IMG/VR virus record: IMGVR_UViG_3300014962_000009
Coordinates: 1-55,836 of that record
Source: a virus
Lineage: Duplodnaviria; Caudoviricetes
DNA length: 55,836 nt
Reading direction: 5' to 3' (one strand)
Shown here: positions 1-55,836 of the stretch, in pieces
How positions within the stretch are numbered: the stretch's first letter is position 1
Layout of the letters: every line of letters starts with the position of its first letter
Program-made: the position numbers and the translations under genes
The notes under the pieces: generated by a model
Databases searched by the model: none
The model's input: only the letters and a program-made list of their open reading frames with translations
Told to the model about the DNA's origin: nothing

Positions 1-3000
1 CACCACCACCACCACCGCCAGTTGAACCTGTTTGAGATTCTAACGGGGGTTCGGTTACAGTTTCTTCAGTAATATCTGTTTCCTCTTCTGTCGGCAAGAC
101 ATCGGTTGGAATAGTTACTGGCAACTCACCAATTCCGCCAAGACCGCCAACAATATTTGTGCCATCAACTCCTGAAGTCCCCCCGGTTTGACCAACCTCA
201 CCAAGACCTCCAAGACCTCCAAGACCGCCGAGTCCTTGAGTTTCCCCTAATGTTCCAGCCCCTGTAGTGTCTACAGTTCCAGTTAACGCCCCCAAACCGG
301 AAGTTTGTCCAGTTCCCTCCGGGGTATTAAATCCTGTAGTTTCGCCGATTCCGGTTGATGTTCCAGTTCCTGAGGTTTCCCCGGTTCCTGTAACTTCACC
401 AATCCCCGTCGATGTTCCAAGATCAGCAATTTCACCAGTTCCTGTTAGCGATCCAAGCCCACCAATTCCCGGCGATTCAATTGGAATTACTTGCCCAATT
501 TCACCAGATCCCTCAGTGCCCGCAGTTACTCCCGGCAGTGGAATTATCTCAGTAGTTCCAGCACCTGTAGAGGATTCAATTCCTTCAGTTCCCCCAGATG
601 TTCCTGACCCAGAAATATCTGTTGTCCCAGCAGTCACCCCACTTAATGCATCAGAAAGCGCTTTTTGTGCCAATTCAGCCTCGAATTGCGCCTGCTGTGC
701 AGCCAAAATATTTTCTAACGTAGGGTCAACTAACGCCTGAACTTTTGCGTCAGTTGCCGCAGTTGTTGCTTCATTTGCCTCATTAAAAACTTGCTCCAGC
801 GGCTTATAAGATAAGTCCTCTGGTTGCGTTGGGGCTGGCGCTGGAGTTGGAGTTGGAGTTGGCGCTGGGAAAGGCTCAACTGGCAATGATTCGGGCTCAG
901 GAGCGGGCGTTGGCTCAGGGACAAACTCAGGCACCGGCTTTGTAATTTCGGCAATCTTAACATTTTCAAGTGCATTTTGAGCCAATTCCGCTTCTAATTG
1001 AGCTCTTTTCGCCGCCTCTTCATTTTCTGGCGTAGGGTAAATCTGTGCAATTACTTCGGCCTCTACAGCAGCATTTATCGCTTCTTCTACTTTTGTTTGA
1101 GCCTCTTCAATAGGTTTTACAATAGGCTCTACTACCAGCTCAGGAACTGGCGTAGGAACTGGCTCAGGAGTAGGCTCAGGAGCAAGCTCAGGAATGGGCT
1201 CAGGAGTGGGCGTCGGAATTGGAACCGGCTCAGGAGCTGGAGTTGGCTCCGGGGTAGGAATAGGCTCTATTACAGAAGGCGACTCAGGAATAACTTCTGG
1301 AATCAGCTCTGGAATAGGCTCTGGAATTAATTCAGGAACAGGTTCAGAAACTGGCTCAGAAGTTGGTTTGGGAGCTTGAGCAGCAAGCTCAGCATTTAAT
1401 GCTTCTGTTGCTATCTGATCAGATGTTTTTGGAAGTTGTGCTGTTGGCACATTTCCAAATAAAGTCTCCTGCAATATGTTTTTATTTAATTCAACCTCTA
1501 ATTCTGCATTTTTTGCAAAATTAATATTTTCAAGCGTCGGATCCAACATTGCCAAAACTTTTGCGTCAATAGCAGTTGCAGCAGATTCATTGACCTTGGC
1601 GTTGATCTGATTAAGATAATCTTTAAAATCTTTATCAAAAGTGCTTACTGCTTCCTGATTTGCTTCAGGTAGAGTATCTTTAGGTAAAGCTCCAATCTCT
1701 GTATTGGCCTTCAAAAGATCTGTGTCGCCAGACAACGCAGCCTTTTTATATGCATCCAAAACCTCAGATTGTTCAGAAGATGTAAGCGGAGTTGTTTCGT
1801 CTCTTTTCCCGCTAACAATAATTTCTGGCAAATATTTGTCTTCGACAGCGTATGGACGAAAATCAACTTCCGGCACATCTATGGGAATATCCGTTGCTGT
1901 GGATTTACCATAAGGGATAATCCCGCCACTCATATCTGCAGCTAATTCAGGGCCGTACTGTTTGCCATAATCAGGGCTTTTAGGTAATGCCTCTGCTTCA
2001 GCAAGTTGCTCTTCAATTGTTTTTGTTTTGGTAGGCTCTACTTCTTGAAGAGTGTTTGTTGGTGTGGGCGCATTTATGGCCTCATCTGCTTTTGCCAAAC
2101 CAAATTCAAGCAACGCATTTTTTGCAGCCTCCTCAGGAGACATGCCAGACGCTACATTTTTTGCAAATTCTGCAGCAGTTGAAGAGGCAGCCTGATCATT
2201 TGTTAATTTTTCTGTTGCGCCGCCTACTACGCCAGCAGCAATACCAGATAACAACGCTTGTTTTACATCACCGCCTAAAAGTGCTGTATTAGAACCAACG
2301 GCAATCGCATTACCCAAAGATTTTTGTATAACAGGATCATTTGTTTTTGATAATCCTGTTACATATTGCGCAACTTGATTAGAAGCCAATCCAGAAAGGG
2401 CTGTTTCTAATGCTTTTTGGGGATCAGCGCCAGCAGCAAGTGAAAAACTTGTGTTAACAATTGCATTACCAACAGCGGTTGATACGCCTAAACTACCAGC
2501 AAGAACACTACCCATCGTTGGCAAGGCAAAAGTTGACATCGCCATTTCGGCAATATCAAAAGCCTTATCTACAAAGCTTTTTTTGTTTTGCCTTGCAAAT
2601 TGCTCTTTGGCATAAACAACGCCATTAGCTTCCGCTTTACCAAGTATTTGTGATATTTCGCTTACAGGCATTTGCTCTTGTGTAAGCAAATACTTTAAAG
2701 TTGGGGTTAATTGTTTTTGATAATCGGAAGCTTGCGCTAAACTTGTTGGATTATTGTATCCAGTCTGGACAATAATATTTTTTACAAGATTATCAACTTG
2801 ATTTAACGCATATTGTTTTGGATTTTTATAAGCATTGTTAATTTTATCAATGAAATGTTGACGAGATTTGTCAAGAGTATTTTTGGTTTGATTTATTCCT
2901 GCTTCAGTATAAAGAAACTCAAGTTGCTCAAGATCGCTTTTTAATGACGGCATTACGTTGCCAAATCCGCCAACAGGCTTTCCATCTTTTAGTATGGAAT

Positions 3001-3238
3001 TTGGCCCACCAGAAACAAACTTTCGTGCATCCTCTACACTTGTAATGCTTTTTGTAGAAGGCTTAGGTGGTGGAGGCGGGGGTGGAAGCTTGGCAATAGC
3101 AGCGGCAATTTTTTTTGCCGCACTTGCATCTAGCGTTGAAGGCTCACCCGTTTTCAGCGGCTCTAGACCAAATTCCTCCCTAGTTGGGCGAGTATTAATT
3201 TTAAGGCCGCCTACAGCCGGAGTTGGACGCTTACCCAT
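1..3238 (-). CDS. Large virion/ejection protein, N-terminal part (>1070 aa; runs off the left edge and continues at 55637-55836)
   Basis: ATG at 3236-3238 (MGKRPTPAVGGLKINTRPTREEFGLE...). The same frame reads poly-Gly at positions 2-19, and spot-checked codons are open. Absent from the ORF track because there is no stop in the window. Contains an Ala/Gly hydrophobic segment and PE/PT repeats. Confidence 0.75.
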   Translation of the reverse strand, partial: MGKRPTPAVGGLKINTRPTREEFGLEPLKTGEPSTLDASAAKKIAAAIAKLPPPPPPPKPSTKSITSVEDARKFVSGGPNSILKDGKPVGGFGNVMPSLKSDLEQLEFLYTEAGINQTKNTLDKSRQHFIDKINNAYKNPKQYALNQVDNLVKNIIVQTGYNNPTSLAQASDYQKQLTPTLKYLLTQEQMPVSEISQILGKAEANGVVYAKEQFARQNKKSFVDKAFDIAEMAMSTFALPTMGSVLAGSLGVSTAVGNAIVNTSFSLAAGADPQKALETALSGLASNQVAQYVTGLSKTNDPVIQKSLGNAIAVGSNTALLGGDVKQALLSGIAAGVVGGATEKLTNDQAASSTAAEFAKNVASGMSPEEAAKNALLEFGLAKADEAINAPTPTNTLQEVEPTKTKTIEEQLAEAEALPKSPDYGKQYGPELAADMSGGIIPYGKSTATDIPIDVPEVDFRPYAVEDKYLPEIIVSGKRDETTPLTSSEQSEVLDAYKKAALSGDTDLLKANTEIGALPKDTLPEANQEAVSTFDKDFKDYLNQINAKVNESAATAIDAKVLAMLDPTLENINFAKNAELEVELNKNILQETLFGNVPTAQLPKTSDQIATEALNAELAAQAPKPTSEPVSEPVPELIPEPIPELIPEVIPESPSVIEPIPTPEPTPAPEPVPIPTPTPEPIPELAPEPTPEPVPTPVPELVVEPIVKPIEEAQTKVEEAINAAVEAEVIAQIYPTPENEEAAKRAQLEAELAQNALENVKIAEITKPVPEFVPEPTPAPEPESLPVEPFPAPTPTPTPAPAPTQPEDLSYKPLEQVFNEANEATTAATDAKVQALVDPTLENILAAQQAQFEAELAQKALSDALSGVTAGTTDISGSGTSGGTEGIESSTGAGTTEIIPLPGVTAGTEGSGEIGQVIPIESPGIGGLGSLTGTGEIADLGTSTGIGEVTGTGETSGTGTSTGIGETTGFNTPEGTGQTSGLGALTGTVDTTGAGTLGETQGLGGLGGLGGLGEVGQTGGTSGVDGTNIVGGLGGIGELPVTIPTDVLPTEEETDITEETVTEPPLESQTGSTGGGGGG
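1130..1380 (-). repeat. Low-complexity Pro-Glu/Pro-Thr coding repeats (PEPIPEPTPEP...)
   Basis: Repeated ggctcagga-type units on the plus strand. Confidence 0.8.
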
Positions 3239-7176: not shown

Positions 7177-7343
7177 TACCAACCACCTTTCTTGGCCTTG
7201 GCACCCTGCAAATTAGCTACCAGAGACGGATATTTGGTGCCGGTTTTCTTGGCAAATGCCTTGGCGGCCTTCTTCTGATTGGGGCTCAGCTTTTCGGGCT
7301 TCCCCAAATCCTTTGGCCTTGGTTTCTCCCAAACTTCTTTCAT
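7176..7343 (-). CDS. Small basic protein (55 aa) ending AKKGGW
   Basis: Read by hand: MKEVWEKPRPKDLGKPEKLSPNQKKAAKAFAKKTGTKYPSLVANLQGAKAKKGGW. Confidence 0.7.
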   Translation of the reverse strand: MKEVWEKPRPKDLGKPEKLSPNQKKAAKAFAKKTGTKYPSLVANLQGAKAKKGGW

Positions 7344-8470: not shown

Positions 8471-8898
8471 GGCTTTGGATATTTGGCCTTAATCGCTTCA
8501 ATCTTTGCGGCCATCTCAGCCGCAGCAGCGCCGCCCTTCCACATCGCCCCAAGTTGCTCTGCCAAAGAAGGATATTCAGCGCGGCGCTTAGCGTAATAGT
8601 CTGGCACGTCAGGGCGGACAATCTCTGACTTGTCGATAGGAACAGTCGTTGTCTTACCCGTCATCGGATCAGGAATTTCCCTTGTCTTAGGCGTCAGAGC
8701 TGTCCACGCGGCTTCCTTGGCATCGATGTCAGCCTTGATCGCAGCCTCTTTAGAAGCAAGATAGGCCGACAGATCCGCGCCCGGAGGAACAAAAGTCTGC
8801 CAGTCATAAGACCGACCGTTATGCTGAACTTTCAGATACGCAAGGCTGCGCTCTTCACCTTCAATATTAGAAGCCAACCCTTCAAGAGATACACTCAT
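8467..8898 (-). CDS. Tail-fibre assembly chaperone-like protein
   Basis: C-terminal YYAKRRAEYPSLAEQL...IKAKYPKP, a motif typical of small genes that follow fibre genes. Confidence 0.55.
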   Translation of the reverse strand: MSVSLEGLASNIEGEERSLAYLKVQHNGRSYDWQTFVPPGADLSAYLASKEAAIKADIDAKEAAWTALTPKTREIPDPMTGKTTTVPIDKSEIVRPDVPDYYAKRRAEYPSLAEQLGAMWKGGAAAAEMAAKIEAIKAKYPKP

Positions 8899-10250
8899 TT
8901 TATTGCCTCCAACCTAAAGTTTTTGCCCGGATGCTGCCCAGTTGCGGGCAGAATCTTGATGTCTTTAAATCCCACATGCGTACACAAGTCAGACAACGTC
9001 TTCGGTGTATAGCCCCAGAGATGAGGGGACAATGCACCTTTCTCTTCCGTTTCAGGCGTGATTCTGTCCACATGCGCCCCAAAGATACACATCGCCGTCA
9101 TGTGCTGCTCTGTGCCTTCCTGCTCCAAAAAATCCTTGCACAGCCCTGCCAAGTCCGGCAATTCCATAACAAGTTTGCCGCCTTCCTTCAGTGTGTTCAA
9201 CCATTTTCCCAAAACCTCCGGCGCACGGTGTTGCGGGATATGTTCAATGACATGGCTGGCAAATATCTCGTCAGCGCAGCCCTGAGGCAGATCCAACTTC
9301 ATGATGTCTTGCTTGATGTCGGCCGTGTCGCTGTGCATATCCACGCCCATATAGCCTTCCAAGCGATCCCGCCCACAGCCCATATTGAACCGGATTGGCT
9401 GGCCCTCTGCCATCATTTGGGCAAGGATCGCTTTGTACCCAGCAGTCGCGCCTGTGCCTTCTGGCAGACGATCAGCCCAGCGGCGATCAATGAACTCCTT
9501 GTCGTCCAGCGTCAGCGGTCTGGTCGGCGGGATGTTCGTGTAATAGTTCTTCAAGTCTACAGACGGATGAGCGGTATACATGCCGCTGGCCAAATCCATG
9601 TGCAAACACTGAACGTCCGTATTCACCAACAATTTCGTGCCGCGTTTGTGCAGTCGGTGGACAAAGAAATTGTCCTCACCAATGAACGGGATTTCACCAT
9701 TGATGTTGTTGCCGATGCAGCAAAATGGCATATCCGGCGCTTCTTCTTTCATCTGTTTCAAGAGCGCAATCGGAATCAGCATGATGTCCATACCGGTCTG
9801 CCACGCTTCAATCAACTGCCCCGGATCGACGTTCGGGATGGTGATCCAATCCCCCTCGCGCACCATAATCATCGCGTCTGAACACTTGATGTAATAAACA
9901 CCCGTCACCACCGCGCCGGGGTTTTCTTCGGCGGTCTTCAGCAGCTTCTTGAATCCGTCGTAAGGAACAACCGTGTCCTCGCCGATGAAGAGCATATATT
10001 TAGCCCCTGATTCAAGGGCCTGCTCGATCAGGTAATTGCGGGCCACGTCCACCTTCTCGCCGCCAATGTTCACAAAGCCGTGAGAAAATCCCATCAGGTC
10101 GATGTGCAGCCCTTCGTAACCATCAAAATTTTGTGCTGCGGTTTCTTCTAAGTTCCTTCTAGGCTGAGCAATTACAACGTAAGGTTTTATGGTTTTGGAT
10201 TCGTCGTAAATTTCTTGCATCGTATTTATTATTTTTTCCCTGCTATACAT
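8895..10250 (-). CDS. Glycosyltransferase (GT-A/GT2-like) fused to class I SAM methyltransferase
   Basis: N-terminal ARNYLI...LFIGEDTVVP and GEDNFFVHRL. C-terminal FNMGCG...GVD...ASHVIEH...LKEGG.L.MELPD. Confidence 0.8.
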   Translation of the reverse strand: MYSREKIINTMQEIYDESKTIKPYVVIAQPRRNLEETAAQNFDGYEGLHIDLMGFSHGFVNIGGEKVDVARNYLIEQALESGAKYMLFIGEDTVVPYDGFKKLLKTAEENPGAVVTGVYYIKCSDAMIMVREGDWITIPNVDPGQLIEAWQTGMDIMLIPIALLKQMKEEAPDMPFCCIGNNINGEIPFIGEDNFFVHRLHKRGTKLLVNTDVQCLHMDLASGMYTAHPSVDLKNYYTNIPPTRPLTLDDKEFIDRRWADRLPEGTGATAGYKAILAQMMAEGQPIRFNMGCGRDRLEGYMGVDMHSDTADIKQDIMKLDLPQGCADEIFASHVIEHIPQHRAPEVLGKWLNTLKEGGKLVMELPDLAGLCKDFLEQEGTEQHMTAMCIFGAHVDRITPETEEKGALSPHLWGYTPKTLSDLCTHVGFKDIKILPATGQHPGKNFRLEAIK

Positions 10251-10279: not shown

Positions 10280-11659
10280 TTAGAATTTATTGAAAAACGG
10301 CGACAAACAATAGCCTATATTGCGTTGTGTGTTGGTGGAGATTTTTTGGCCTTTGTCCGCAGAATAAGGAACAAAATACAAATCTCCATTTGGTGTTAAT
10401 ACGCCGCTTGAATAAGCAGTTGCTGCAGTGTAAATAAGAGAATACGTTGAAACTACGCCTGAAGAAGAAATTTTTTGTCCTACAGCGGCAGAATGAGGAA
10501 TGAAATGCATGTCCCCGTTGGGCGCTAATACACCTCCTTGGTATGCGCTTGTTGTTGTGTAAACTAATGAGTAAGTAGAAACAACACCTGCCGCAGATAT
10601 CTTTTGCCCCACAACGGCATTCCTTCCCGCAATGAAATGTATGTCTCCGTTCGGAGCCAGCACACCACCAACATAAGCAAGCGTCGTTGTGTAAGCAAGA
10701 GAATAAGTTGAAACAACACCGGCAGACGAAATTTTTTGTCCTACAGCGGCAGAATAAGGAACAAAATGCACATCCCCATTGGGGGCCAATACACCACCTA
10801 AATATGCAGAATTCGCGGTATAAACAAGAGAATAGGTAGATACAACACCAGAAGATGAAATTTTTTGGCCTACAACGCCAAGGTGAGGAACAAAATGCGT
10901 GTCGCCGTTAGAAGCTAATACACCTCCCCAGTACGCATTTGATGCCGTGTAAACGAGAGAATAAGTTGAAACTACGCCAGACGACGAAATTTTTTGGCCT
11001 CTGTTGGCATTGAAAGGGACAAAGTTTATGTCACCATTGGGCGCTAGTACGCCGCCTCTGTGCGCACCGGACGCCGTATAAACGAGGGAATAAGTCGAAA
11101 CAACACCTGTTGCTGATATTTTTTGGCCTTTGTCAGCAACATAAGGAACAAAATGAATGTCGCCATTTGGGGCTAATACACCGCCTGAATATGCAGCACC
11201 CACCGTGTAAACCAAACTGTACGTGCTCACCATCCCACTAATATTGCTGTTGGCATAGGGCACCCCATTTACCACACCTCTGTCCAGCTCTTTCTTCAGG
11301 TTAGTCCAAGCATAAAGATCCGTGCCCACGCTGCTGTTGTCGGCGGTCGGCACCGTGCCTTCCGTGGCGTCTGCCGGGTAAGTACAAAAAACATCCTTGG
11401 TACCCGCCGACCAATTCACTAATGCGTTGCTGTTGGAAGATTCAAGCACCGTGTCGCGTGAAAGGGTGGTGCCAGAAGCTGTATACGTGCCAATGCCCAC
11501 TTCCCAATCGGTACCGTTGGTGATGCAGTAATAAGTCTGGTTGGCATTGCCGATGACGGAAAAAGATTGAAATCCTGCGACCGCCGCGCCCAGCGTAAAC
11601 GTGCCTGTGCCTGTCGTGGTGCTGGTAACTTTTACTCTGTCTTTGACAACGTAAGGCAT
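10280..11659 (-). CDS. Fibre/receptor-binding protein 3 with seven 43-aa beta-propeller repeats
   Basis: N-terminal fibre domain DRVKVTSTTTGTG...WEVGIGTY plus 7x VVSTYSLVYT..AY.GGVLAPNGDIHFVP...GQKIS. Confidence 0.75.
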   Translation of the reverse strand: MPYVVKDRVKVTSTTTGTGTFTLGAAVAGFQSFSVIGNANQTYYCITNGTDWEVGIGTYTASGTTLSRDTVLESSNSNALVNWSAGTKDVFCTYPADATEGTVPTADNSSVGTDLYAWTNLKKELDRGVVNGVPYANSNISGMVSTYSLVYTVGAAYSGGVLAPNGDIHFVPYVADKGQKISATGVVSTYSLVYTASGAHRGGVLAPNGDINFVPFNANRGQKISSSGVVSTYSLVYTASNAYWGGVLASNGDTHFVPHLGVVGQKISSSGVVSTYSLVYTANSAYLGGVLAPNGDVHFVPYSAAVGQKISSAGVVSTYSLAYTTTLAYVGGVLAPNGDIHFIAGRNAVVGQKISAAGVVSTYSLVYTTTSAYQGGVLAPNGDMHFIPHSAAVGQKISSSGVVSTYSLIYTAATAYSSGVLTPNGDLYFVPYSADKGQKISTNTQRNIGYCLSPFFNKF

Positions 11660-11669
11660 GTTTAAATCC

Positions 11670-13058
11670 TCAGTACTTGTTCAGATAGGAACTCAGGCAA
11701 GTGTCTATGCCGAAGGGTATTGCGGGGTTGGTGGAGATTTTTTGGCCTATAACAGCCCAATAAGGAATAAAATGAACTTCGCCATTTGGTGTTAATGCGC
11801 CGCCGCTGTATGCATTACCTGTTGTGTACAAAATAGAGTAAGTTGAAACAACACCCGTTGTTGAAATTTTTTGCCCTCTATTGGCCCCGAAAGGAATGAA
11901 GTGTATATCGCCGTTAGGCGCTAATACACCCCCTTGATATGCGCCTGCTGCGCTTGTGTAAACAAGGGAATACGTAGAAACCACGCCGGACGACGAGATT
12001 TTTTGGCCGCGATTGGCCAACGATGGAACAAAGTGCATGTCACCATTGGGCGACAATACACCACCAATGTATGCGCCTGCTGCGGTATAAATGAGAGAAT
12101 AAGTGGAGACAACGCCTGCCGCTGAAATCTTTTGCCCTCTATTCGCGATGTAAGGAACAAAATGCATGTCCCCATTGGATGCCAACACACCACCAAAATA
12201 TGCGCCCGATGCTGTATAAACAAGCGAATACGTTGAAACAACGCCCGCAGAGGATATTTTTTGGCCTACAGCAGCGCTGTAAGGAACAAAATGAATGTCC
12301 CCATTAGGCGTTAACACACCACCAGAATATGCGCCTGATGAGTTTGTGTAAACAAGGGAATACGTGGAAACAACTCCAGACGCTGATATTTTTTGGCCAC
12401 GATTGGCGCTGTTGGGTACAAAATGAATATCACCGTTTGGAGCTAATACACCACCAACGTATGCGCTTGCTGCAGTATAAATAAGAGAATAAGTGGAGAC
12501 AATACCTGAGGCTGATATCTTTTGCCCTACAGGGGCGCTGTCAGGGACAAAATGGATGTCTCCATTAGGCGCTAATACACCTCCATTGTATGCGCCTGTG
12601 GTTGTGTAAACAAGCGAATACGTACTAACAATCCCATTTGTGCCGTTATTGTTGAACGTCACGCCACCATTGATGCTGGCTTGCAAATTCTTCTGAAAAT
12701 TGTCAAACGCCACGCCATTTGTACCAATGCTGCTGTTGTCTGCGGTAGGCGCTGATCCCTGCACATTCTCAGCAGGCTGAGGCACGTAAACATCTTTTGT
12801 GCCTGCAGCGAAGTTCACCAACGCATTGCCGTTGGAAGATGCAAGCACCGTGTCTCTTGACAATGTTGTGCCGCTGGACGTGTAAGTGCCGATGCCTACT
12901 TCCCAAGCTGTACCGCCGACAATTGTGTAATAAGTCTGATTACCGTTGCCGATGCCGGAGAAGTCTTGATAACCCGCTATTGCTGCACCGAGCGTGAACG
13001 TACCCGTACCCGTCGATGTGCTGGTTACCCTTATGCGATCTTTGAGTACGAATGTCAT
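11670..13058 (-). CDS. Fibre/receptor-binding protein 2 with seven beta-propeller repeats
   Basis: Same architecture as 10280-11659. Confidence 0.75.
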   Translation of the reverse strand: MTFVLKDRIRVTSTSTGTGTFTLGAAIAGYQDFSGIGNGNQTYYTIVGGTAWEVGIGTYTSSGTTLSRDTVLASSNGNALVNFAAGTKDVYVPQPAENVQGSAPTADNSSIGTNGVAFDNFQKNLQASINGGVTFNNNGTNGIVSTYSLVYTTTGAYNGGVLAPNGDIHFVPDSAPVGQKISASGIVSTYSLIYTAASAYVGGVLAPNGDIHFVPNSANRGQKISASGVVSTYSLVYTNSSGAYSGGVLTPNGDIHFVPYSAAVGQKISSAGVVSTYSLVYTASGAYFGGVLASNGDMHFVPYIANRGQKISAAGVVSTYSLIYTAAGAYIGGVLSPNGDMHFVPSLANRGQKISSSGVVSTYSLVYTSAAGAYQGGVLAPNGDIHFIPFGANRGQKISTTGVVSTYSILYTTGNAYSGGALTPNGEVHFIPYWAVIGQKISTNPAIPFGIDTCLSSYLNKY

Positions 13059-13060
13059 AA

Positions 13061-14443
13061 TCAGAGCTTGTTCAAAAATGGGCTAAGGCACAAACCAATG
13101 CCTAAAGGTTGTCCGGGGTTGGTGGAGATTTTTTGGCCTACGGCAGCGCTATTCGGAACAAAATTAATGGTTCCATCGGGCGACAACACAGCCCCTTGAT
13201 ATGCGGATGACGCCGTGTAAACAAGGGAATACGTAGAGACAACGCCGGAGGCTGATATCTTTTGACCTCTGTTGGCGCTAAAAGGTATGAAATGCACGTC
13301 GCCATTAGGAGCTAATACGCCACCAACATACGCATCTGCAACTGTGTAAACGAGTGAATAAGTAGAAACCACTCCGGAGGATGATATTTTCTGGCCCACA
13401 ACGGCGTCCCTTGGAACAAAATGAATGTCTCCGTTGGGCGCTAGTACACCCGCTTGATATGCTTGCGCCAGTGTATAAACAAGAGAGTAGGTAGAAACTA
13501 CGCCTGCCGCTGATATTTTCTGGCCTACGGCGGCATTGGTGGGAATAAAATGTATGTCTCCGTTAGAAGCCAAAACACCACCAGAATAAGCAAGCGTTGT
13601 TGTGTAAGCAAGAGAATAGGTTGAAACAACACCGGCAGACGAAACTTTCTGCCCTCGATTGGCGCTTCTTGGGGCAAAATGGATGTCACCGTTTGGAGCT
13701 AATACACCACCGTTGTATGCATTCACTGCGGTGTAAACAAGAGAATAGGTGGAAACAACTCCAGAGGCCGACAGCTTTTGTCCTACAGGAGCATTAAAAG
13801 GCACAAAGTGAATTTCTCCATTAGGTGCTAATACGCCTCCAGCGTATGCAGACGCGGCTGTATAAACAAGGGAATAAGTTGAAACTACGCCAGACGACGA
13901 AATTTTTTGTCCTCTAGCGGCAGCAACTGGAACGAAGTGAATGTCTCCGTTGGAAGCCAGCACACCACCAGAATATGCGCTTGCAACTGTATAAACAAGG
14001 GAGTACGTACTTACCACCCCGTTGGTATTATTGTTCCCGAACGTCTGCCCACCCGCCACACCCGCATTCAGCGCAGTAGAAAGTGCCTGCCAACCTGAGA
14101 GATCAGTGCCTACCGAGTTGTTGTCCCCACTAGGCACACCACCCGGCGACGCAGCGGACGGATATGCGCACAGCACATCTTTCGTGCCTGCTGAAAAGTT
14201 TACTAACGCGCCGTTGTTGGAAGAGCCGAACACCAACTGACGAGAAAGCGTTGTGCCAGAAGCCGTGTAAGTTCCCTTACCTACTTCCCACTCTGTCGTG
14301 CCTTTGATGACGTAGTAAGTTTCGTTGCCATCCCCAATCACAGAGAACGCCTGATAGCCGGTCGCAGCAGCGCCTAGCGTGATCGTCCCCGTGCCTGTCG
14401 TGGTCGTCGTGGACTTGACTCTGTTTTTAAGAATGAGTGCCAT
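13061..14443 (-). CDS. Fibre/receptor-binding protein 1 with seven beta-propeller repeats
   Basis: Same architecture as 10280-11659. Confidence 0.75.
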   Translation of the reverse strand: MALILKNRVKSTTTTTGTGTITLGAAATGYQAFSVIGDGNETYYVIKGTTEWEVGKGTYTASGTTLSRQLVFGSSNNGALVNFSAGTKDVLCAYPSAASPGGVPSGDNNSVGTDLSGWQALSTALNAGVAGGQTFGNNNTNGVVSTYSLVYTVASAYSGGVLASNGDIHFVPVAAARGQKISSSGVVSTYSLVYTAASAYAGGVLAPNGEIHFVPFNAPVGQKLSASGVVSTYSLVYTAVNAYNGGVLAPNGDIHFAPRSANRGQKVSSAGVVSTYSLAYTTTLAYSGGVLASNGDIHFIPTNAAVGQKISAAGVVSTYSLVYTLAQAYQAGVLAPNGDIHFVPRDAVVGQKISSSGVVSTYSLVYTVADAYVGGVLAPNGDVHFIPFSANRGQKISASGVVSTYSLVYTASSAYQGAVLSPDGTINFVPNSAAVGQKISTNPGQPLGIGLCLSPFLNKL

Positions 14444-18688: not shown

Positions 18689-19000
18689 TTACCATGAAGA
18701 CGCTTTTTTTGACTTTTGATGAGTGGAGATTTTTGATTTACCCATTTTTATGCTGCCGCCAGACTTCTTGCGCATTGAGCGAAGCCTTTTCATAGCCTCT
18801 TCGTCTTCAGAACTAAAACCCTCAGGCATTGAAGAGCGTGCGCTTTCAGCCTCTGCCCTATTTGAAGCAGCCTGACCTTGAACATTCCGCTTTGACGCAG
18901 CAGCGCGGGCATCAAATTCTTCTTTTGATACCGGCACATTGTCTATCTCATAGACTTGTCCAGTTGCAGTTGGGTATGACCTAAAATTTGTATCTGGCAT
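18689..19000 (-). CDS. Hypothetical protein with KKSGG basic tail
   Basis: 103 aa ORF with RBS. Confidence 0.6.
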   Translation of the reverse strand: MPDTNFRSYPTATGQVYEIDNVPVSKEEFDARAAASKRNVQGQAASNRAEAESARSSMPEGFSSEDEEAMKRLRSMRKKSGGSIKMGKSKISTHQKSKKASSW

Positions 19001-19009
19001 TCTGTTCTC

Positions 19010-19414
19010 CTACCAACCCGGACAGTTCCAACGCTTCATTGATGCTCTAGAACGAGATCCGCGCTCACTTTTTTCTGCAACGGCTCCCATTCGGGCACAG
19101 AAAGAGTCTCGACGCTTCCCGCCTTGGGGTTGCGGAGCCTTCAAATCGCTCCCAGTCTCTCTGTTGTACTTTGCACGACCCTTCGCAGTCAGACCAGCCC
19201 CCTGATCTGCCGATAATTTCTCCCCCCGACCTACGGAAAGAGAAGGGCCACCATCTTTCTTTTTCTCTGGCAGCTTCCCGTAAGCCCTTTTTCCTACATT
19301 AGACTCTGTATATTCAGATGCCACATCCTCTGAAATACCGACCTTCTTGGCAATCTTTGGATTGTGTGCGGCCGCCTGCATCAATCTAAACTGGGCCTTC
19401 GATTTGGCTGGCAT
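19010..19414 (-). CDS. Basic conserved phage protein (DUF6321-like C-terminus)
   Basis: Likely start MPAKSKAQ at 19414; GAGLTAKGRAKYN...RRDSFCARM...RWNC. Confidence 0.6.
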   Translation of the reverse strand: MPAKSKAQFRLMQAAAHNPKIAKKVGISEDVASEYTESNVGKRAYGKLPEKKKDGGPSLSVGRGEKLSADQGAGLTAKGRAKYNRETGSDLKAPQPQGGKRRDSFCARMGAVAEKSERGSRSRASMKRWNCPGW

Positions 19415-20601: not shown

Positions 20602-21636
20602 TTAGCAACCGCCGCCGCGCTTCTTGCCGGGTGCGACTGTCACCGATTCTTTGGATTTAGTCACAGTTCCGGATTTTCCGCGAAGCTCATCAATGGCTTC
20701 TCCAAGCTTACGAGGAATCTTCCTAATGGTGCCAAGAGGATCCTTGAGAGCGCGCATGAATTGATCACGCGTATCTCGGTTTTCCTTCTCTTCATCCTCA
20801 TAAAACTTATCGTAAGCAGTTGCTTCAGCATCACCGCCACCAGCATATTTCTTAACCTTTCCACCCTTTTTAAAGGTACCGGAAAGTTGGTTAATACTCA
20901 CTGGCGTTGATGGGCGCTTACTCCCTTGTGGCATCTTGACGGCACGACCATCATCCTGCACGGCCCCACCGTCAGCATACTTTTTTGGAACACCGCCCTT
21001 CTTGTAGCCGCCAGCATTGCCTTTGATAACGCCGCCGGTTTTATAACCACCGCCGTTACCCATCTTCACGCCACCAGTTTTGGCAGGCGAAGAATCGCGT
21101 TTAGCAGTGTGCATCTTGGTCTCTGTGTAGCCCTCAGCGCCCTTTTTGGAAGCACTGACAGGAATGACGCTGCCGCCATCCTTATAGCCACCCTGACCCA
21201 TGGCAACGCCACCAGTCTTGAGACCTTTATGAGCTTTGGAAGCAGGCATTGACTCATGCTTCTTCAACTCTTTGGCAGTGCCCGCCATTTTCTTCATCTC
21301 GGCCATGTGCTCAGCCTTGCTTTCGCCGCCTTCTTTCATCATGGGGCGAACAGGCATACGAGATGCCATCATTGCCTTACGACGGGAAGCCAGAGAAGGC
21401 TTTTTAGGAGATGGGCCTGCTGGCATGGCTGCTGGCATTACTGCAGGCATTTTAGAAGGCATAGTTGCAGCAGGCATACTGCCTAGACCGCCCATCGCCA
21501 TTTTCTTGGCTTTGGTGGTCGAGCCGCCCTTTTTCATCGTTACCGCGCCGCCTTTTGCGAGTTTTAGCTCAACAGTAGGCTCTGTGGTCATCATTTTGAC
21601 CATTGGTTTGAATTGGCCCATGATGTGCCCTATCAA
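20602..21636 (-). CDS. Basic, low-complexity protein with 11 strict [MLFY][AK]xGG motifs (putative internal head protein)
   Basis: LAKGG, MKKGG, MAMGG, MKEGG, LKTGG, YKDGG, YKTGG, YKKGG, YADGG, FKKGG, YAGGG. Confidence 0.65.
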   Translation of the reverse strand: MIGHIMGQFKPMVKMMTTEPTVELKLAKGGAVTMKKGGSTTKAKKMAMGGLGSMPAATMPSKMPAVMPAAMPAGPSPKKPSLASRRKAMMASRMPVRPMMKEGGESKAEHMAEMKKMAGTAKELKKHESMPASKAHKGLKTGGVAMGQGGYKDGGSVIPVSASKKGAEGYTETKMHTAKRDSSPAKTGGVKMGNGGGYKTGGVIKGNAGGYKKGGVPKKYADGGAVQDDGRAVKMPQGSKRPSTPVSINQLSGTFKKGGKVKKYAGGGDAEATAYDKFYEDEEKENRDTRDQFMRALKDPLGTIRKIPRKLGEAIDELRGKSGTVTKSKESVTVAPGKKRGGGC

Positions 21637-22817: not shown

Positions 22818-23732
22818 CTACACGCCCGGAGTTCCGTACATTGCACGCCAGTCGGTGAAGCCGACATCGTAACGCTCAGTGGCCTTGTAGCGCATTGAGT
22901 CAGTCTCGAAGTCCCCTTCCATGGTTTTCTCCAGCTTACGGCGCATCAGAAGCTTCATGCCTTCTGGTGCATCGGTCTGAACCCACCATGCGGTCGCAGA
23001 AGTCAGACGCGACAGAACTGCAGCGCCTTCGTCCAGCAGGCCAATCGACTTGATTGGGTTGATGTCGTTGTTAGCGTTGCCGCTACGGAGAACCGACTTC
23101 AGCAGAACTTCAGCTTGGAAGATATTGCCGGGTGCAACCACCAGTTGGCGGGGAACCAGACGAATCTTCTTGCCGTTGTTGTCCACAGCTTGACGGATCT
23201 GGATAAGCATCTGCTCAAGCGAGGTCTGCGACAGGTTGGCTGCTGTTGCCAGCAGGTTGGATGCCGTGCCGTTGACGATTGGGTGCGAAGCCGAGTTCAG
23301 TTGCACACCGTCGCCGCCGGGGTAAGCCGAGTTGAAAGCGCGGTTCAGCACGTTGGCCGACAGTGTTTCTTTGGTCTCAATCAGCGACTGAGCCAAATGA
23401 CGGGCATACACCTGACCGATACGGATATGGTCGCCGTCTTCTACCAGAACTTTGGTCAGGGCAAATGCCAGACCATAGACAGAGTAGACGTAGCGCTTAA
23501 GGAACAGCACACCACCCTGCTGATACGATACTGGCGTACCGTCAGGCAGTTGTGGAGCCGCGCCAAAGCCGTACAGAACTGGCTCTTCGTGGTAGTTACG
23601 TGGGATACCTTCTTGCTCACGGAATACGCGAGACCATTCATCAGTACGTTGATCGTAGACACCATCAAAGCATTCATTCAGGATGGGTTCGACAATGCTA
23701 CGAAAGTCGGTACTTCTCATTGGAGCTGCCAT
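22818..23732 (-). CDS. Major capsid protein (HK97 fold)
   Basis: 304 aa: EE..L.GFG.A, ARHLAQSLIETKE..ANVLN, DGV.L.S..HP, EGDFETDSMRYKATERY..G..DWR..YG. Confidence 0.88.
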   Translation of the reverse strand: MAAPMRSTDFRSIVEPILNECFDGVYDQRTDEWSRVFREQEGIPRNYHEEPVLYGFGAAPQLPDGTPVSYQQGGVLFLKRYVYSVYGLAFALTKVLVEDGDHIRIGQVYARHLAQSLIETKETLSANVLNRAFNSAYPGGDGVQLNSASHPIVNGTASNLLATAANLSQTSLEQMLIQIRQAVDNNGKKIRLVPRQLVVAPGNIFQAEVLLKSVLRSGNANNDINPIKSIGLLDEGAAVLSRLTSATAWWVQTDAPEGMKLLMRRKLEKTMEGDFETDSMRYKATERYDVGFTDWRAMYGTPGV

Positions 23733-26705: not shown

Positions 26706-29192
26706 TCAAACTCCTAAGTTGCGTTGTGCTGCTTCCTGCAGCGATAGGGCAGTCTCCTGCTGTTCCTTCTGTAATTGAACACCGTCAACCGTAATTTCAG
26801 CAGCTTTCATGCGCTCTTTCGTCAGGTTGTTTTCTGTGTTCATCGCAATATCAGCCTGCAACTTCTGATTCTGCATCTGAATATCAGCCTGATCACGCAT
26901 CTGACGGCGTTGAGTTTCAGCCATCGATGCCTGCAGCACTGCCTGAGATTCAGGATCAGACATCTGCTGCGATTGCTTCTGCTGCTGAACCATTTGAGCC
27001 ACCGTCTGACCCAACTGCTGCAGAGCAGGCATTACCTTCTCAAAGACCTTCTGCGTATCCATCTTGACGTGCTCAGAGGCAACGGCAATCGTCTGGTCAA
27101 TCGGTTTGGTCATGCCGCGATCATCGTATTTGTTCAGATCAAGGCCCGTATCAGCCACGGCATACTGCGTCATCTGATCTTTGTACCAAAGCACCATGTG
27201 CTGCTTGATATGCTCCATCTCTTGCGGCAAACAGGCCATAGCCACAATCGGATTACTACCCAAGGTAGGATCCAGAGCAAAGTTCAGGTGGCTCATAATA
27301 TGAGCTAGGTGATCTTGACCGGGATAAGCAAAGGCAGGCTTGCCAAGTGCCATCGACATGTTCTCGTCAATCGCATTCATCTCACCCGGCTTGATTGCGG
27401 CAGGCATCAACTCGGCAATATTCGGCACCTTCATCTGCTTTAGGAACCGGGAAACCACCGCACGGCGGTCAAACAGGTCAGGATTCTCAGTAGCAAGCTG
27501 TTTTACGGCCTGCATCTGCGCAATACGCTGCGTTTCGCTGAAAATATGGGGATCGGATACCGGAACAACGTCAGAATTGCGCTCAAAGTCTGAGTTTTCC
27601 ACAGGCAAATCAGCAACAACGTCGCCTTTTAACTGCTCGTCCAGATACCAGCGGTTAATTCGGCCCAAAATCATCAAAACACGCTTCTGAGACTCATGTA
27701 AACGAGCATGAATGCCAGAAAATACCGCCGCGCCTTGCTCAATCAGCGCCTGAGTCGTACCAACAGGCATATTTGAGTTCACATCGGCAATTTTTTCCTC
27801 TGCCGTGGTCACTACACCCTTAGCTTGCGTGGTCAACCAGCCCAAAAGCTCGAACAAAACCGGGCTCGGAGGGTTAAATGGCAGCGGCATAGCGATCTTG
27901 CGGACATCATCCACGCCCGGAGCGCCCTCAATCTCAATTACCTGAGTCACATCGATCTGATCAGACTGGCCAGAGATCTTTCCGCCCTTCAGTTTCATCA
28001 TCGTGGCGGAGTTATTGATGTGCGCTGTGTCCAAAAGCGCCCGCAAAGCACCCGTCAGAGCTGCAGACATGCCGCCAATGATGTGAGGCAGGCCAACAGC
28101 GTAGGCTCCACGCCATGGGATGAACTTAAACTCAACGATCCAGTCCAACTTGGTCATCGTTTCGTCGCCATCTTCCCAATTACGGTACAGGCCCAAGAGC
28201 TCATGATCCTGCCCATCAATCATCATGATGTACGGGGCCATCTCTCCCTTGCTGTATTCGTCATCCTCAAGCTCTAGCCATGTGTAAACGTGGTAGATGT
28301 TGCGCAGGCCGTCTATGTTGTCGCTCATAGACCGGCCTTCGATCTTGTCGTTGGCCTTCTGTGGGCCGCTCTGCTCAGGCTCCAGCGTCGATCTGATGAA
28401 CGTCACGTCCCGATACAGACCACGGTCAATCCGCTGCCTATATTCAAAGTCAGTGATCTCATGCACCTCAGTCACGCGCTGAGCGGTGTAGAAGTTACCG
28501 GCAGCAAACGGAAGGTAAATATTGTCGATGGGAACGAACTCAGCACAGGGGCGACGCTTCTTCTCGTCGTACCACATCTTCAGGTACTGAGATCCACCCA
28601 GCGGAAGCTGAGTCAGCATCTGTTCCTGCTCGTCGCGGTACTCTTCGATCTGCTCAGTGAGCTGCCAGTTCATGTAGTCGCGCTTGCGCTCAGCCACTTC
28701 AGTCTTCTCAGGCGTTACCTCACCCAGAATCTTGGTGCGGGTTGGGCCATCAGGCGGGAACAGTTCTTTGATCGCACGGGAAGCGAAGTCGATACAGGTC
28801 TCGACCATGATCGGATGCACGACCTTCGAGGCACCATTGAAGTTAGCGCCACCCGGAGAGTCGTTACCCATACCAGTACGGCGCAGGCCTTCCTCGTACT
28901 GCTTATCGCGGCCCTTGCGGTCTTCCTTATCCTTCTCAATCAGATCCAGATAGCGCATGGCAATCGAATCCAAGTCCATCGGATTGAATACATCAGCAAG
29001 GTTTTGATAGAAGTCCTCGTCCTCAGCAGGCGTCTTAAACTCCTTGTCCATGTTTACCACGACCGAACCGTCAGGCAGCTCTTCTAGCTCCTCGTCCTCA
29101 AGATCAAGATCGATCTCAGCCCCGCCATCAGGCATCTCTTTCAAACCGTTGATGAAGCGCCCAAACTCAGGGTCAACAGGCATTTCAGGCAT
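26706..29192 (-). CDS. Portal protein
   Basis: 828 aa: GASKVVHP, ELFP..GP, MNWQL, LPLGGS..K..YD, PVGTT.ALIE, PVSDP.IFS..QR, DH.AH. Confidence 0.88.
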   Translation of the reverse strand: MPEMPVDPEFGRFINGLKEMPDGGAEIDLDLEDEELEELPDGSVVVNMDKEFKTPAEDEDFYQNLADVFNPMDLDSIAMRYLDLIEKDKEDRKGRDKQYEEGLRRTGMGNDSPGGANFNGASKVVHPIMVETCIDFASRAIKELFPPDGPTRTKILGEVTPEKTEVAERKRDYMNWQLTEQIEEYRDEQEQMLTQLPLGGSQYLKMWYDEKKRRPCAEFVPIDNIYLPFAAGNFYTAQRVTEVHEITDFEYRQRIDRGLYRDVTFIRSTLEPEQSGPQKANDKIEGRSMSDNIDGLRNIYHVYTWLELEDDEYSKGEMAPYIMMIDGQDHELLGLYRNWEDGDETMTKLDWIVEFKFIPWRGAYAVGLPHIIGGMSAALTGALRALLDTAHINNSATMMKLKGGKISGQSDQIDVTQVIEIEGAPGVDDVRKIAMPLPFNPPSPVLFELLGWLTTQAKGVVTTAEEKIADVNSNMPVGTTQALIEQGAAVFSGIHARLHESQKRVLMILGRINRWYLDEQLKGDVVADLPVENSDFERNSDVVPVSDPHIFSETQRIAQMQAVKQLATENPDLFDRRAVVSRFLKQMKVPNIAELMPAAIKPGEMNAIDENMSMALGKPAFAYPGQDHLAHIMSHLNFALDPTLGSNPIVAMACLPQEMEHIKQHMVLWYKDQMTQYAVADTGLDLNKYDDRGMTKPIDQTIAVASEHVKMDTQKVFEKVMPALQQLGQTVAQMVQQQKQSQQMSDPESQAVLQASMAETQRRQMRDQADIQMQNQKLQADIAMNTENNLTKERMKAAEITVDGVQLQKEQQETALSLQEAAQRNLGV

Positions 29193-29203
29193 GATCGTTT
29201 CCT

Positions 29204-32200
29204 TTAATTAACCGTCCAGATTGATTTCACTGCGCCGCCATTAGCAAAGGCAGGCGCTTGTACAAATAGACCGCCGTCAGACATATCGGGGTCAGAGTTA
29301 TATGAATTGACTTCACCGCCTTCAGCCATGCCTTGTACATGCTTCTGCAGCATCTCGTTAAAGCGGGACTCGTAGTCCACAGCACCACCTCCTGCCATGC
29401 CTGCGACATGATCTTGCAGCATTTGGTTGAAGCGGGATTCGTAATCGACTGCGCCACCTTCTGCCATGCGGACAGCGCCACCGTCTTTATATGACTGGCC
29501 TATCTTGGCAGACTCACGCATCTTAGGTGTGATGTCGATGTAATACACCTTCTCGCCCATATCAGGCCGGAACTTGCGCAAGACTTGATTGAAGATACGA
29601 GCATATTGATCATCAGACATTTGCAGCGCACTTTTACCGCCTGATAGGCTCATCATCTCCCGAATAAATCCGGGCATAGAAGTGATCTCGTCAATTTGTT
29701 TTAAGGTAAGGTCATGCATACCCTTACCAGCAGCAGGCAGCGTAGTCTCACCCACCTTGGCACCAAACTGCTTGGCATACTTGTCGAGGAAGTTCTTGTA
29801 GGTCTTGTCGTAATACTGGCGCATACCTTCGCCGCCGACTTTAAGGTCATTGCCCTCCAAAGTTTTCCAGCCAGAAAATTCTTTGGCATTAATAATTTTA
29901 TCCGCAGCATCTTTGCCAATGTAATCAGCAAGGCGATCTTTGGTCACATTTTCATATTTGATTGTGCCTTCTCCATTGGCTCTTTGAGCAGCAAAGCTCC
30001 CAGTAGATTCATTCCAAACAACTTTGTCTACTTGTTTACTCAAGTCATAACGATCAGCCTGCCGCGCACCCGTAGTCAGGTACACCCGATCCATGCCAGT
30101 GTCTGCAGCTTCTTTGACCGCACGCTTTAGTCCAAGCTGATACCAATTGTCTTTAAATGGGGCGTCGGGGACGGCTCTGTAATAAGCATTTGAAAGATCA
30201 GTAAATCTCCGCTCTTCTGCCGTTGCCTGATCCAATAATGGCCGTATCTCTTTTTGTCTAGCAGGGTTACCACTGTTTCTGTTGAATTCATTTAACAATT
30301 CTGTCGCCCTACGTCTTGCCGCAACATACTCAGGATCTTCCCAAGAAATTTGGGGCACTTTACTTTTGTATCCCTTTTCTCTCCCCTGCTGATGCCAGTC
30401 AGATTGCAGCTCATCAATCAGCAAGCCCTTCTTGCCTTCAGCGTCAGTGTGGTCAGCTACACGCAGGTGGAATAGGACGTTGGGCTCATCACCGTGGTGG
30501 GTTTGGTGCATGAAGTCCTGAACGTCGCCAGCATCAGCTCTTTCAATGGCTGCGTTGTATTCTGCCCTCGACATATTATTAATTGATGGCCGATTGCTAG
30601 GCAGTCCAACGCGGATCTCGCGGTAGTTCTCACCACCCGGCAGGTTGTATTCAGGCGCTGCATTCGGGCCAAACTTGGCTGGGCCAGAACGCATTGCCTG
30701 CTGGTACTCCTTCTCAAGCGTAGACAGATGACGCTCAATCTCAGCATACTCACGGCTATCAGAGTCGAGGTACTGCAACTCTTCCTTCAGGTTGTCAATG
30801 CTTTCGGCAATAGCGTCTAGCTTCTCATTGCTCTCAGTGCGCACTGTCTCTTGCAGTGGGATGCGATTCTGTTCTGCGGCAGCAACCAACTCCTCACGAG
30901 TTACGTTCGGACGGGAGGCCAGATCACCCAGACCAAGCTCAGTCAGGCGCTCATCGTTCACACCCGGCGTCTTCTTCATCTCAGATACAAACGCTGATCC
31001 CGGCCCCTGCTTACGCTGCACATTGAGTGCCGCCTTCTCTACGGGGTTGTAAAAGCCCAGATCATTTGCCGGAGCCTTGACCTTACCTTTGGGGCCGCTT
31101 TCAGGCACCATACTCATGCGCATCGGGGCTGTGGCCCTCTGGAGTTGCATCTCTAGAATGTCGGCAGGCGTAGGTGCCAATGCCTTAGCACCTGCCGTGC
31201 CGTACTTCAGCGCCTTCTGTGCAGCACCGGGGGCCAAGATGGCCGTGCCAAGCTCAGTCAGAGGACGCTCCTCACCCGTAGTAATGCCAGCCCTGCGCAT
31301 CAGCTCTTGAGCGCTCTCAGTGCCATAAGGCATCGTGCCCTGTGGGCCAACCTGAACCTTGGGCGCATAGCCCATGGGGGGCGTTCTCTCAGGGCCAGTA
31401 TCCATTACAGACGCAGGCTTGCGCAGGCCGGGGATTTTTGTCTGCAGCCAATCCAGTGCCTCGCCACCCATGCCGATGATGTCCATCGGAGCACCAGCAG
31501 CAAACGCCACAGGGCCACGCATCAGGATGTCGGTCAGCGCACCCGGCTTGCGCATCGATCTGCGCTCCCGTTCTATCTGAGCCTTCGCCGCATCAGACAG
31601 GTCAGTTAATGGCTGAGGGATTGTCAGTGGCTTAGGGTTGAACATCTCGCCAATCGACTGCCCCGGCTCGTTACCGCCTGCCATATGCACAGGGCCACCA
31701 TCCTTCTTGCCAGTCAATTCCTTGATGCGACGGCGGTACTCACCAATCTCGTCGAGCAATTGCTGGTCAATGATCTGCTTACCACCAACCATCTGCAGAG
31801 TGCCGAACTCGCTGCCTGCCTGCTTAGGATTAGCGCGGATGCCAGCCACCGTATCAGGGAAGGTCAGCTCATAAGGCATCAGTACATCAGTGCGGCCAAG
31901 GAACTGCCCCGGAATATCATGCGAGTAAGTCGGATGGGCTGATGGTTTCAAACCCTGTACTCCGGGCTCCATCTGCATGAGGGAATAGCCAGTCATGCCG
32001 CGTTCCATGTCCCGCAGCTCAGGCTCACTGACGGCGTGACGGACATTCAATCCGCTGGGCAGGCCAAGCTCTTCTGTTGTCTTAGTGAGCTGCATCACTG
32101 AGTTGTAATGCTTACGGGCCTCAGGATTCTCAGCCATATACAGATAAGCCGCTTCTGGATGCTCAATGCCGGGGAAGTCAGGGAACTCACCTTTGAGGTT

Positions 32201-55636: not shown

Positions 55637-55836
55637 TTACCTCTGTTTTCTAAGCGTGATCAAACCACCACGCGCCAATCTAAAAAATTTTGATAACTGC
55701 ATTCTTGCCGCATATTCCTGTGGTGACATGTAAATATTTGTTTCGGTGTCAATTTGCGGAACTTCTCCTGCTGGATATGACGTTGTTGTCGTTGTGTATA
55801 GTGGGCTAAACACCGGCCTTCCACCACCACCACCGC
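55637..55836 (-). CDS. C-terminal end of the gene starting at 3238 (across the circular junction)
   Basis: Reads GGGGGRPVFSPLY...FRLARGGLITLRKQR-stop; same Gly frame as positions 2-19. Confidence 0.7.
   Translation of the reverse strand, partial: GGGGGRPVFSPLYTTTTTSYPAGEVPQIDTETNIYMSPQEYAARMQLSKFFRLARGGLITLRKQR

Follow-up and report, generated by a model that had tools for sequence, protein, structure and literature searches.

Short signals shared by phage internal proteins and the processing of tape-measure proteins are both arrangements of a known kind. Here we describe a Gly-Gly motif, [MLFYK][AK]xGG (the strict pattern), in late proteins encoded by a 55,836-base stretch of tailed-phage DNA (IMG/VR record IMGVR_UViG_3300014962_000009 at its full length, called the window below), and above all in a basic protein of 339 residues from the head-gene block. 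Its conservation and placement mark it as a joint signal under selection, set where protein modules end.

Phage T4 has L/I-x-E sites and its own prohead protease, gp21. As in the T4 capsid-targeting and gp21 system, a short signal is here common to several otherwise unrelated, putative head-interior proteins, and any small basic products would presumably remain associated with the DNA. The 339-aa protein, unlike the other motif-bearing proteins, also has a conserved N-terminal segment that ends in the motif. However, the motif is a different one and the window has no recognisable prohead protease. Encapsulin cargo-loading peptides load cargo into a shell. By analogy, a short Gly-containing terminal peptide would dock cargo inside an HK97-fold shell, but the encapsulin consensus differs, and copies in the window are often internal, with some in tail proteins.

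Closer precedents come from tape-measure proteins. A C-terminal piece of about 14 kDa is cut from lambda gpH, out of "the glycine-rich region", and the pertinent part of the paper gives both site and catalyst as unknown (PMC12617516); the portion of the T5 study that deals with pb2 maps its cut by mass spectrometry to a position after R1127 (PMC10038345). The conversion of pb2 to pb2* and pb2C and of gpH to gpH* and gpHC resembles the case proposed here. A 536-aa protein of the window has a module found in tape-measure proteins, where it is in most of those examined headed, and often followed, by the motif, and the cuts fall just before A-E-G-G in T5 and within the Gly-rich region holding both copies in lambda. 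There, however, one or two copies sit in a tail protein, whereas in the window a protein of the head block has 12 and the putative cargo has many more; and cutting is documented there, whereas the window's proteins are known from sequence alone. The T5 and lambda papers describe cleavage and no motif, and the literature covered, to which most subscription journals do not belong, holds no description of a Gly-Gly joint or cleavage motif in phage proteins.

For polyvalent proteins, the relevant sections of the describing paper propose processing into separate domains and assign it to embedded zincin-like peptidases, a domain found in only about 36% of members and hence not obligatory (PMC5512222); the words "glycine" and "linker" are absent from its main text, so the joint motif is not described there. 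The window's 1273-aa protein compares well with this class, since its family carries ART-PolyVal or LPD22 domains, its gene adjoins that of the portal, and domain processing has been proposed for the class. It differs in lacking an embedded zincin-like peptidase: neither HExxH nor HDxxH occurs in any ORF (open reading frame) of the window, and no peptidase domain was found in 30 polyvalent homologues.

Distribution of the motif in the window and its relatives

Matches were counted in 85 ORFs (18,367 residues, taken by a simple greedy choice), and 2000 shuffles of each protein gave the chance level. There are 27 matches in the whole set against a shuffle mean of 4.89 (sd 2.16, maximum 13), and 15 against 4.28 expected (maximum 12) when the 339-aa protein is excluded. 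That protein has 12 copies where shuffles give 0.61 (maximum 4), the 1273-aa protein 7 against 0.51 (maximum 4) and the 536-aa protein 3 against 0.26 (p=0.0025); the single copies in 8895-10250, 50801-53155 and the gene spanning the window's two ends (the junction gene) are each non-significant alone (p 0.10-0.28). All 27 fall in the 45 late ORFs (4.37±2.05 expected, maximum 12 in 1000 shuffles), and the 40 early ORFs hold none (0.60 expected). The signal is concentrated in about six late proteins.

These counts bear out two expectations of a first-pass annotation of this DNA, made by a model from the sequence, namely enrichment over shuffles and, for this genome, a late rather than early distribution; its term "genome-wide" proved too broad. 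Its 11 copies in the 339-aa protein become 12 if the C-terminal K-K-R-G-G is counted, and all six that it gave for the 1273-aa protein are present together with a seventh, L-K-V-G-G, that it left out. The three copies in the 536-aa protein, L-A-R-G-G at the end of the junction gene and single copies in the 134-aa and 103-aa proteins were as it had reported. The A-K-K-G-G-W end that it listed for 7176-7343 exists but lies outside the strict pattern, and L-K-E-G-G in 8895-10250, which it took for the only isolated copy elsewhere, is joined by K-K-T-G-G in 50801-53155. It was also right that capsid and terminase are free of the motif; among the window ORFs the portal is free of it as well. Window proteins that do not bear the motif have 0 against about 2.8 expected, a non-significant depletion.

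Composition invites a simple explanation of the copies in the 339-aa protein. With a pI of 10.1 and 67 Lys+Arg against 30 Asp+Glu (besides 53 Gly, 26 Met and 22 Pro), predicted disorder and a gene in the head-gene block, it could be a histone-like internal protein in which K-x-G-G units bind and condense DNA, copies elsewhere being coincidental. The motif, however, occurs in basic proteins (pI about 10) and in acidic ones (the polyvalent tail, pI 4.7; the 536-aa protein, pI 4.8), and is equally conserved in these acidic settings and in the N-terminal part of the scaffold in relatives; what is conserved is a hydrophobic residue and two glycines, not the charges. Since basic and acidic settings are alike in this, the motif is no by-product of Lys/Gly richness, nor simply a DNA-binding repeat, and we regard DNA condensation as a very improbable account of it.

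Among cultured phages, those nearest to the window belong to the RW cluster of Caulobacter phages, with which it has head and tail modules in common. A broader comparison was made with 80 related loci (20-kb pieces; 1321 ORFs), assigned to window proteins by BLASTP. At least one copy of the motif is present in 78 of 78 members of the 339-aa family (10.9 per protein), 67 of 83 of the 134-aa DUF6321 family, 14 of 14 of the polyvalent family and 4 of 4 of the 103-aa family. It is found in none of the 68 capsid, 73 adaptor, 59 191-aa and 49 GroES-like homologues of these loci, and in two of 44 portal homologues. A portal C-terminal pattern was considered, two homologues ending exactly in the motif, and dropped, portal ends varying widely. 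Scaffold homologues have it in 18 of 53 cases, in their acidic N-terminal part; the window's own scaffold has no strict copy. By these assignments the motif follows orthogroups, not composition.

Across the same loci the capsid is 90-95% identical and the 339-aa protein only 45-75%: the shell of the head is under much tighter constraint than the proteins presumed to lie inside it.

Module joints in the 339-aa protein and its neighbours

The mechanical ORF at 20602-21636 (minus strand) is an open frame of 344 codons that reaches a TTG at 21636; homologues back a start at the ATG at 21621, which gives 339 residues. The product matches no Pfam family at E<=1, including the profile PF10685, which we take to be the KGG stress repeat, and no PHROG. 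Its family is very large, with 5083 clusters (90% identity) at E<=0.001 among 8000 candidates scored; 387 representatives (50% identity) passed, all of them unnamed and metagenomic.

In an alignment of 27 of these sequences (A1) the GG pairs are invariant, whereas the stretches between them are variable and carry insertions and deletions. A logo of 1967 GG sites from 120 homologues shows K at -4 (38%), Y/M/L/F at -3 (73%), K/A at -2 (70%) and a variable -1, followed after the glycines by V/A/S and then V (29%), so that the full motif reads K-[YMLF]-[KA]-x-G-G-[AVS]-V, with conservation mostly N-terminal of the GG. The first 21 residues of the protein are mostly invariant or nearly so and run into K-G-G; no similar leader is found on the other motif-bearing proteins.

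At the other end of the family, Cys is present in 27 of 27 sequences of the unfiltered alignment, 2-4 residues past the last G-G (K-K-R-G-G-x-x-C; 20602-20610 in the window). Small basic neighbours instead end in Trp (7176-7343, ...G-G-W; 18689-19000, ...S-S-W; 19010-19414, ...P-G-W).

AlphaFold2, run on a 69-sequence alignment, gives the 339-aa protein a mean pLDDT of 52.5 and a pTM of 0.17, with isolated helices only (77-87, 102-123 and 265-313) and every motif in coil. A folded repeat such as a beta-solenoid was dropped on these grounds. From the model, the protein is best described as a chain, predicted to be intrinsically disordered, in which a copy of the motif ends each of a series of short conserved segments. 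Being coil of low pLDDT, the motif regions would be accessible to an enzyme. Insertions of at least 12 residues in this family start within 3 residues of a GG end in 75 of 93 cases, against 30.6 expected; their other ends show no enrichment (23 against 30.6). Cutting in silico after each motif GG yields 13 pieces of 2-74 residues, 11 net positive and 2 neutral, so that the string of short basic segments envisaged by the annotation is a possible one.

The small 134-aa protein shows the same behaviour at a single joint. It is basic and consists of a small N-terminal domain, the motif and DUF6321; its GG is invariant in an alignment of 25 sequences (A3). In some relatives (loci L004, L050 and L057) a second small basic module, beginning L-Y-A-N-I-H-A-K-R and itself ending in the motif, is spliced in exactly at the GG joint. 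DUF6321 is matched by tblastn in 544 phage records, mostly of cyanophages and pelagiphages and both T4-like and T7-like, and most matches start at residue 58 or later, directly past the GG at 55-56. No paper on DUF6321 or DUF3008 was found in the literature searched.

In the polyvalent protein the motif marks both an internal boundary and the C-terminal tail. The window's copy has no Pfam match at E<=0.001, but its residues 860-1273 align over 100% of the queried region with ART-PolyVal- and LPD22-bearing proteins, and ART-PolyVal (PF18760) or LPD22 (PF18834) is present in 17 of 30 homologues scanned. A set of 120 homologues has 569 motifs where 48.8 are expected, and 295 of these fall in the last 100 residues. 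Homologue tails are built of the motif and two to four helical units of about 20 residues, each closed by M-A-x-G-G, with the final copy nine residues before the end. At the internal K-K-D-G-G, the residues G441, G442 and V444 are invariant among 34 sequences (alignment A9).

The joints could also be passive, that is, a favoured flexible hinge or helix-stop, for instance for unfolding and threading through the tail channel, which nothing reads. G-G is a natural hinge, each motif of the polyvalent tail follows a predicted amphipathic helix, the 339-aa protein is predicted to be disordered, and no reader protein was found among the window's proteins. A hinge, however, needs neither Y/M/L/F at -3 nor K/A at -2 at the frequencies of the logo, nor invariance across families of only 45-75% identity; most copies in the 339-aa protein stand beside no predicted helix, and protein families unrelated to one another have these five to seven residues in common. 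We therefore consider a passive joint unlikely.

Tape-measure proteins and a possible processing joint

The 536-aa protein is predicted to be a tape-measure-like (ejection) protein. Its residues 419-536 match annotated tape-measure proteins of many siphophages (tblastn, 153 records), and it contains the tape-measure C-terminal module G-P-G-x-G-x-S-D-x-I-x-A-x-L-x-x-G-E-[FYH]-V, a stretch over which Pfam has no model (in lambda, Tape_meas_lam_C stops at residue 701). The three copies in the window's protein lie upstream of the conserved G-P-G...D-G-E-Y-V module, the nearest at 31 residues, and among 120 homologues, with 372 motifs against 24.8 expected, 364 of 369 copies lie 20-100 residues upstream of it. 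The annotation's remark that copies sit near termini or at domain boundaries thus agrees with what is seen here, in the polyvalent tail and at the DUF6321 joint.

Thirteen module-bearing proteins were hand-picked, all but that of lambda from the match lists: those of the window, RW, lambda and phiE125, together with nine more from phages that infect actinobacteria (seven), a cyanobacterium (one) and Pseudomonas (one). Directly before the module, a strict [hydrophobic]-[A/K]-x-G-G is present in 8 of the 13 and a near-match in 4 more; in 8 of the 13 another strict copy follows 30-100 residues downstream. The strict copies of lambda gpH are two in number, F-A-T-G-G at 733-737 and Y-A-T-G-G at 778-782, beside its Gly-rich run, and a cut after 737 is computed to give pieces of 80.1 and 12.2 kDa; its similarity to the C-terminus of the window's 536-aa protein is slight (E=0.089 over 17 residues only). 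In the T5 record, A-E-G-G stands directly after R1127 and is the sole A-x-G-G among 5 GG sites in 1219 residues, with R in place of the hydrophobic residue at -3.

Our best reading, held tentatively and somewhat short of probable, is that the motif is a processing joint, subject to site-specific proteolysis by an enzyme that the phage does not recognisably encode. We infer both a role of the window's motif-bearing proteins as virion cargo and their cutting. The former inference draws on gene position, from the polyvalent and tape-measure-like families involved and from the basic, disordered character of the small proteins; proteolysis is favoured because most of the conserved positions precede the GG, as they would at a cleavage site, because copies close modules that come and go as units, because they lie in a disordered, accessible chain, and because the one mapped cut in a protein bearing a look-alike, that of T5, falls on the signal. 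The cargo, comprising the 339-aa protein, the polyvalent protein, the small basic two-domain proteins and the ejection protein, would be packed into the head and expelled through the tail. Cuts would fall after G-G, or just before [A/K]-x-G-G as in T5 pb2, and would break up the 339-aa protein into some dozen short peptides, most of them basic, while releasing the modules of the other cargo proteins. The enzyme might be a host protease, an unrecognised phage protein or the substrate itself by self-cleavage.

Several observations weigh against proteolysis. Some pairs of motifs in the 536-aa family stand 0-5 residues apart, which is odd for cleavage and is fitted at least as well by an avidity tag, and in the polyvalent tail conservation extends to the A-V that follows the GG, as would equally be expected of a binding motif. 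The cut in T5 lies before A-E-G-G and not after G-G, which leaves the register unsettled; the C-termini of T5 pb2 and lambda gpH show no similarity by BLASTP (E=14), so the link to T5 rests on four residues and their position. As the loci compared are related sequences, the orthogroup and homologue counts show conservation and not independent events, and tblastn of the 339-aa protein against 50,697 phage records returned one record, itself metagenomic, although the low-complexity filter probably hides others. Packed cargo proteins are described in the crassvirus atlas, where "proteoly" has 0 occurrences and the relevant passages contain no motif of this kind (PMC10172136). Finally, searches of the 85 ORFs with Pfam and of 43 late ORFs with PHROGs gave no protease of clan CE or any other kind, and the 179-aa head-module protein, modelled poorly by AlphaFold2 (pLDDT 65.4), has no Foldseek match in the PDB at E<=0.001.

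The same Pfam and PHROG searches confirmed that no HK97-type prohead protease is recognisable, as the annotation had stated; capsid matches to PHROGs named "protease" cover the capsid part of fusion profiles only. PDB profile searches with the 179-aa and 191-aa head-module proteins gave nothing, and the ESM Atlas returned unnamed viral clusters only. A role of the 179-aa protein as a reader specific to the motif is unlikely, since it is also encoded by phage RW, in which the motif is at chance. It belongs to no family and has many invariant residues, His60, Cys62, Cys108 and His129 among them.

In adenovirus and African swine fever virus (ASFV) the site consensus is (M/L/I)-x-G-G|x, with the hydrophobic residue at P4. 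Like these systems, the joints proposed here would be cut next to G-G, with basic core proteins among the substrates, and the annotation had leaned on that analogy. In the window, however, Y/M/L/F stands three before the first G, which is P5 for a cut after GG, no clan-CE protease of the adenain or pS273R type was found in any ORF, and the capsid lineage has the HK97-type fold. Both defining features tested fail, so the motif is no member of the adenovirus/ASFV Gly-Gly system, and that system was rejected as a candidate. What holds of the annotation's interpretation is that the motif is real, selected, late-only and placed at module ends; its protease analogy does not, and it missed the closest precedent, the tape-measure proteins.

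An uncut docking or loading tag, bound by a repeated site in the procapsid (the capsid inner face, portal or scaffold) with avidity supplied by the number of copies, is a somewhat unlikely alternative to proteolysis. It would account for multiple, sometimes back-to-back copies, for conservation that runs past the GG, for copies at the extreme C-terminal ends of cargo-type proteins, for the motif in the scaffold of some relatives and for the want of a protease gene in the searches above. Motif-bearing genes also come and go together: phage RW is without the 339-aa, polyvalent and DUF6321 proteins, and the motif is at chance in its whole 62-kb record (5 against 5.2, one of the five in its 536-aa homologue). 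Yet RW keeps a 76%-identical capsid and, along with GroES-like and tail genes, the same portal and scaffold families without these clients, so that no dedicated receptor is evident. Moreover, tape-measure proteins, whose place is in tails and not in heads, have this motif in front of their module, and loading would not require the internal copies found at domain joints. A co-fold of the capsid protein with residues 1168-1271 of the polyvalent tail scored 0.00 in two runs without controls and is evidence for neither side.

In its widest form, the processing reading would make this one ancient Gly-Gly joint code common to everything that leaves a tailed-phage particle by the tail channel. It would take in siphophage tape-measure proteins, with the lambda gpH and T5 pb2 cuts, as well as what short-tailed phages eject or carry as cargo; one type of enzyme, other than the classical prohead protease, would read it throughout, and the 339-aa protein would be a true polyprotein of internal basic peptides. 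We think this improbable as a whole. The reader might then be a host protease (for a T5 tail protein, the title of a 1973 paper by Zweig and Cummings points to host involvement), or else the conserved G-P-G...G-E-[FY]-V module, which would act both in cis and in trans.

Cutting at the joints, if it occurs, would define a processing specificity that is new for tailed phages and involves no recognisable protease of the phage's own. It would also explain how long polyvalent cargo is made ready for ejection, along with basic head proteins of a very abundant family that lacks annotation. The main value lies in lambda, where residues 733-737 and 778-782 of gpH become specific candidates for a cleavage left unmapped for 50 years. 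Should the motif instead be a docking tag, it could be used as it stands to bring foreign proteins into the heads of phages.

Genome setting and neighbouring genes

The window reads as a putatively complete, circularly permuted phage genome, because the gene that leaves its low end (3238..1) resumes in frame at 55836..55637 to give a product of 1145 aa. Late genes lie on the minus strand (Table 1). Between portal and capsid are genes for GroES-like (145 aa), scaffold-like (336 aa), 179-aa and 191-aa proteins, and the gene for the 339-aa protein is followed by those for adaptor-type proteins with Pfam SU10_adaptor matches, fibres and endolysin. The SU10_adaptor matches alone suggest that the phage is short-tailed.

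Table 1. Motif-bearing proteins and selected late genes of the window
Feature	Position	Strand	Remarks
339-aa protein, 12 motif copies	20602-21621	-	11 without C-terminal K-K-R-G-G; after endonuclease VII/HNH insert
1273-aa polyvalent-type protein, 7 motif copies	29204-33025	-	includes L-K-V-G-G; between large terminase and portal
1273-aa protein, C-terminal tail, residues 1179-1273	29204-29491	-	5 motif copies, two helical repeat units of ~23 residues, conserved 9-residue end
1273-aa protein, internal K-K-D-G-G, residues 440-444	31694-31708	-	between N-terminal and middle regions
536-aa protein, 3 motif copies	54024-55634	-	residues 384-430
Junction gene, L-A-R-G-G	55637-55836 (3' end; continues from 3238..1)	-	13 residues before end; p=0.28 alone
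134-aa protein, K-K-D-G-G	19010-19414; motif nt 19247-19261	-	one copy
103-aa basic protein, K-K-S-G-G	18689-19000	-	21 residues before C-terminal Trp; p=0.0085 alone
451-aa methyltransferase-type protein, lone L-K-E-G-G	8895-10250	-	
784-aa protein, one K-K-T-G-G	50801-53155		
55-aa basic protein, ends A-K-K-G-G-W	7176-7343	-	loose match only; PHROG 34011, function not assigned
Small terminase	35175-35693	-	
Large terminase	33022-34458	-	
Portal	26706-29192	-	
GroES-like (Cpn10), 145 aa	25916-26353	-	inside head module
Scaffold-like, 336 aa	24896-25906	-	
Head-module protein, 179 aa	24354-24893	-	fold not matched
Capsid	22818-23732	-	HK97-type fold lineage
Endonuclease VII/HNH protein, 220 aa	22096-22758	-	between capsid gene and next head gene

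With matches in only 6 ORFs across the 80 related loci, the endonuclease VII/HNH gene resembles the insertion of a mobile homing endonuclease; in phage RW this position is taken by another endonuclease-like gene. The GroES-like gene is kept in 49 ORFs of the related loci and is annotated as a co-chaperonin in RW; a PDB profile search with its product gave weak GroES matches and nothing further. T4 gp31 is a capsid-folding co-chaperonin, and by analogy the GroES-like product probably has the same function.

No family was found for the junction gene or for its 287-aa neighbour (53168-54031). The junction product has a run of 14 glycines, followed soon by a run of five threonines, about 90 residues before its end, and the neighbour ends in a Thr/Ser/Pro run. 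The 451-aa protein of the tail-gene block is glycosyltransferase-like in its N-terminal part (PHROG 34859), and its C-terminal part gives weak matches to methyltransferases. Three tandem paralogues of about 460 aa each (10280-14443, minus strand) belong to the Vgb_lyase beta-propeller family (E 5e-16 to 2e-14) and are probably receptor-binding or tail-fibre modules. Directly upstream of the large terminase gene lies a gene for a MazG-like nucleotide pyrophosphatase (34455-34757, minus strand).

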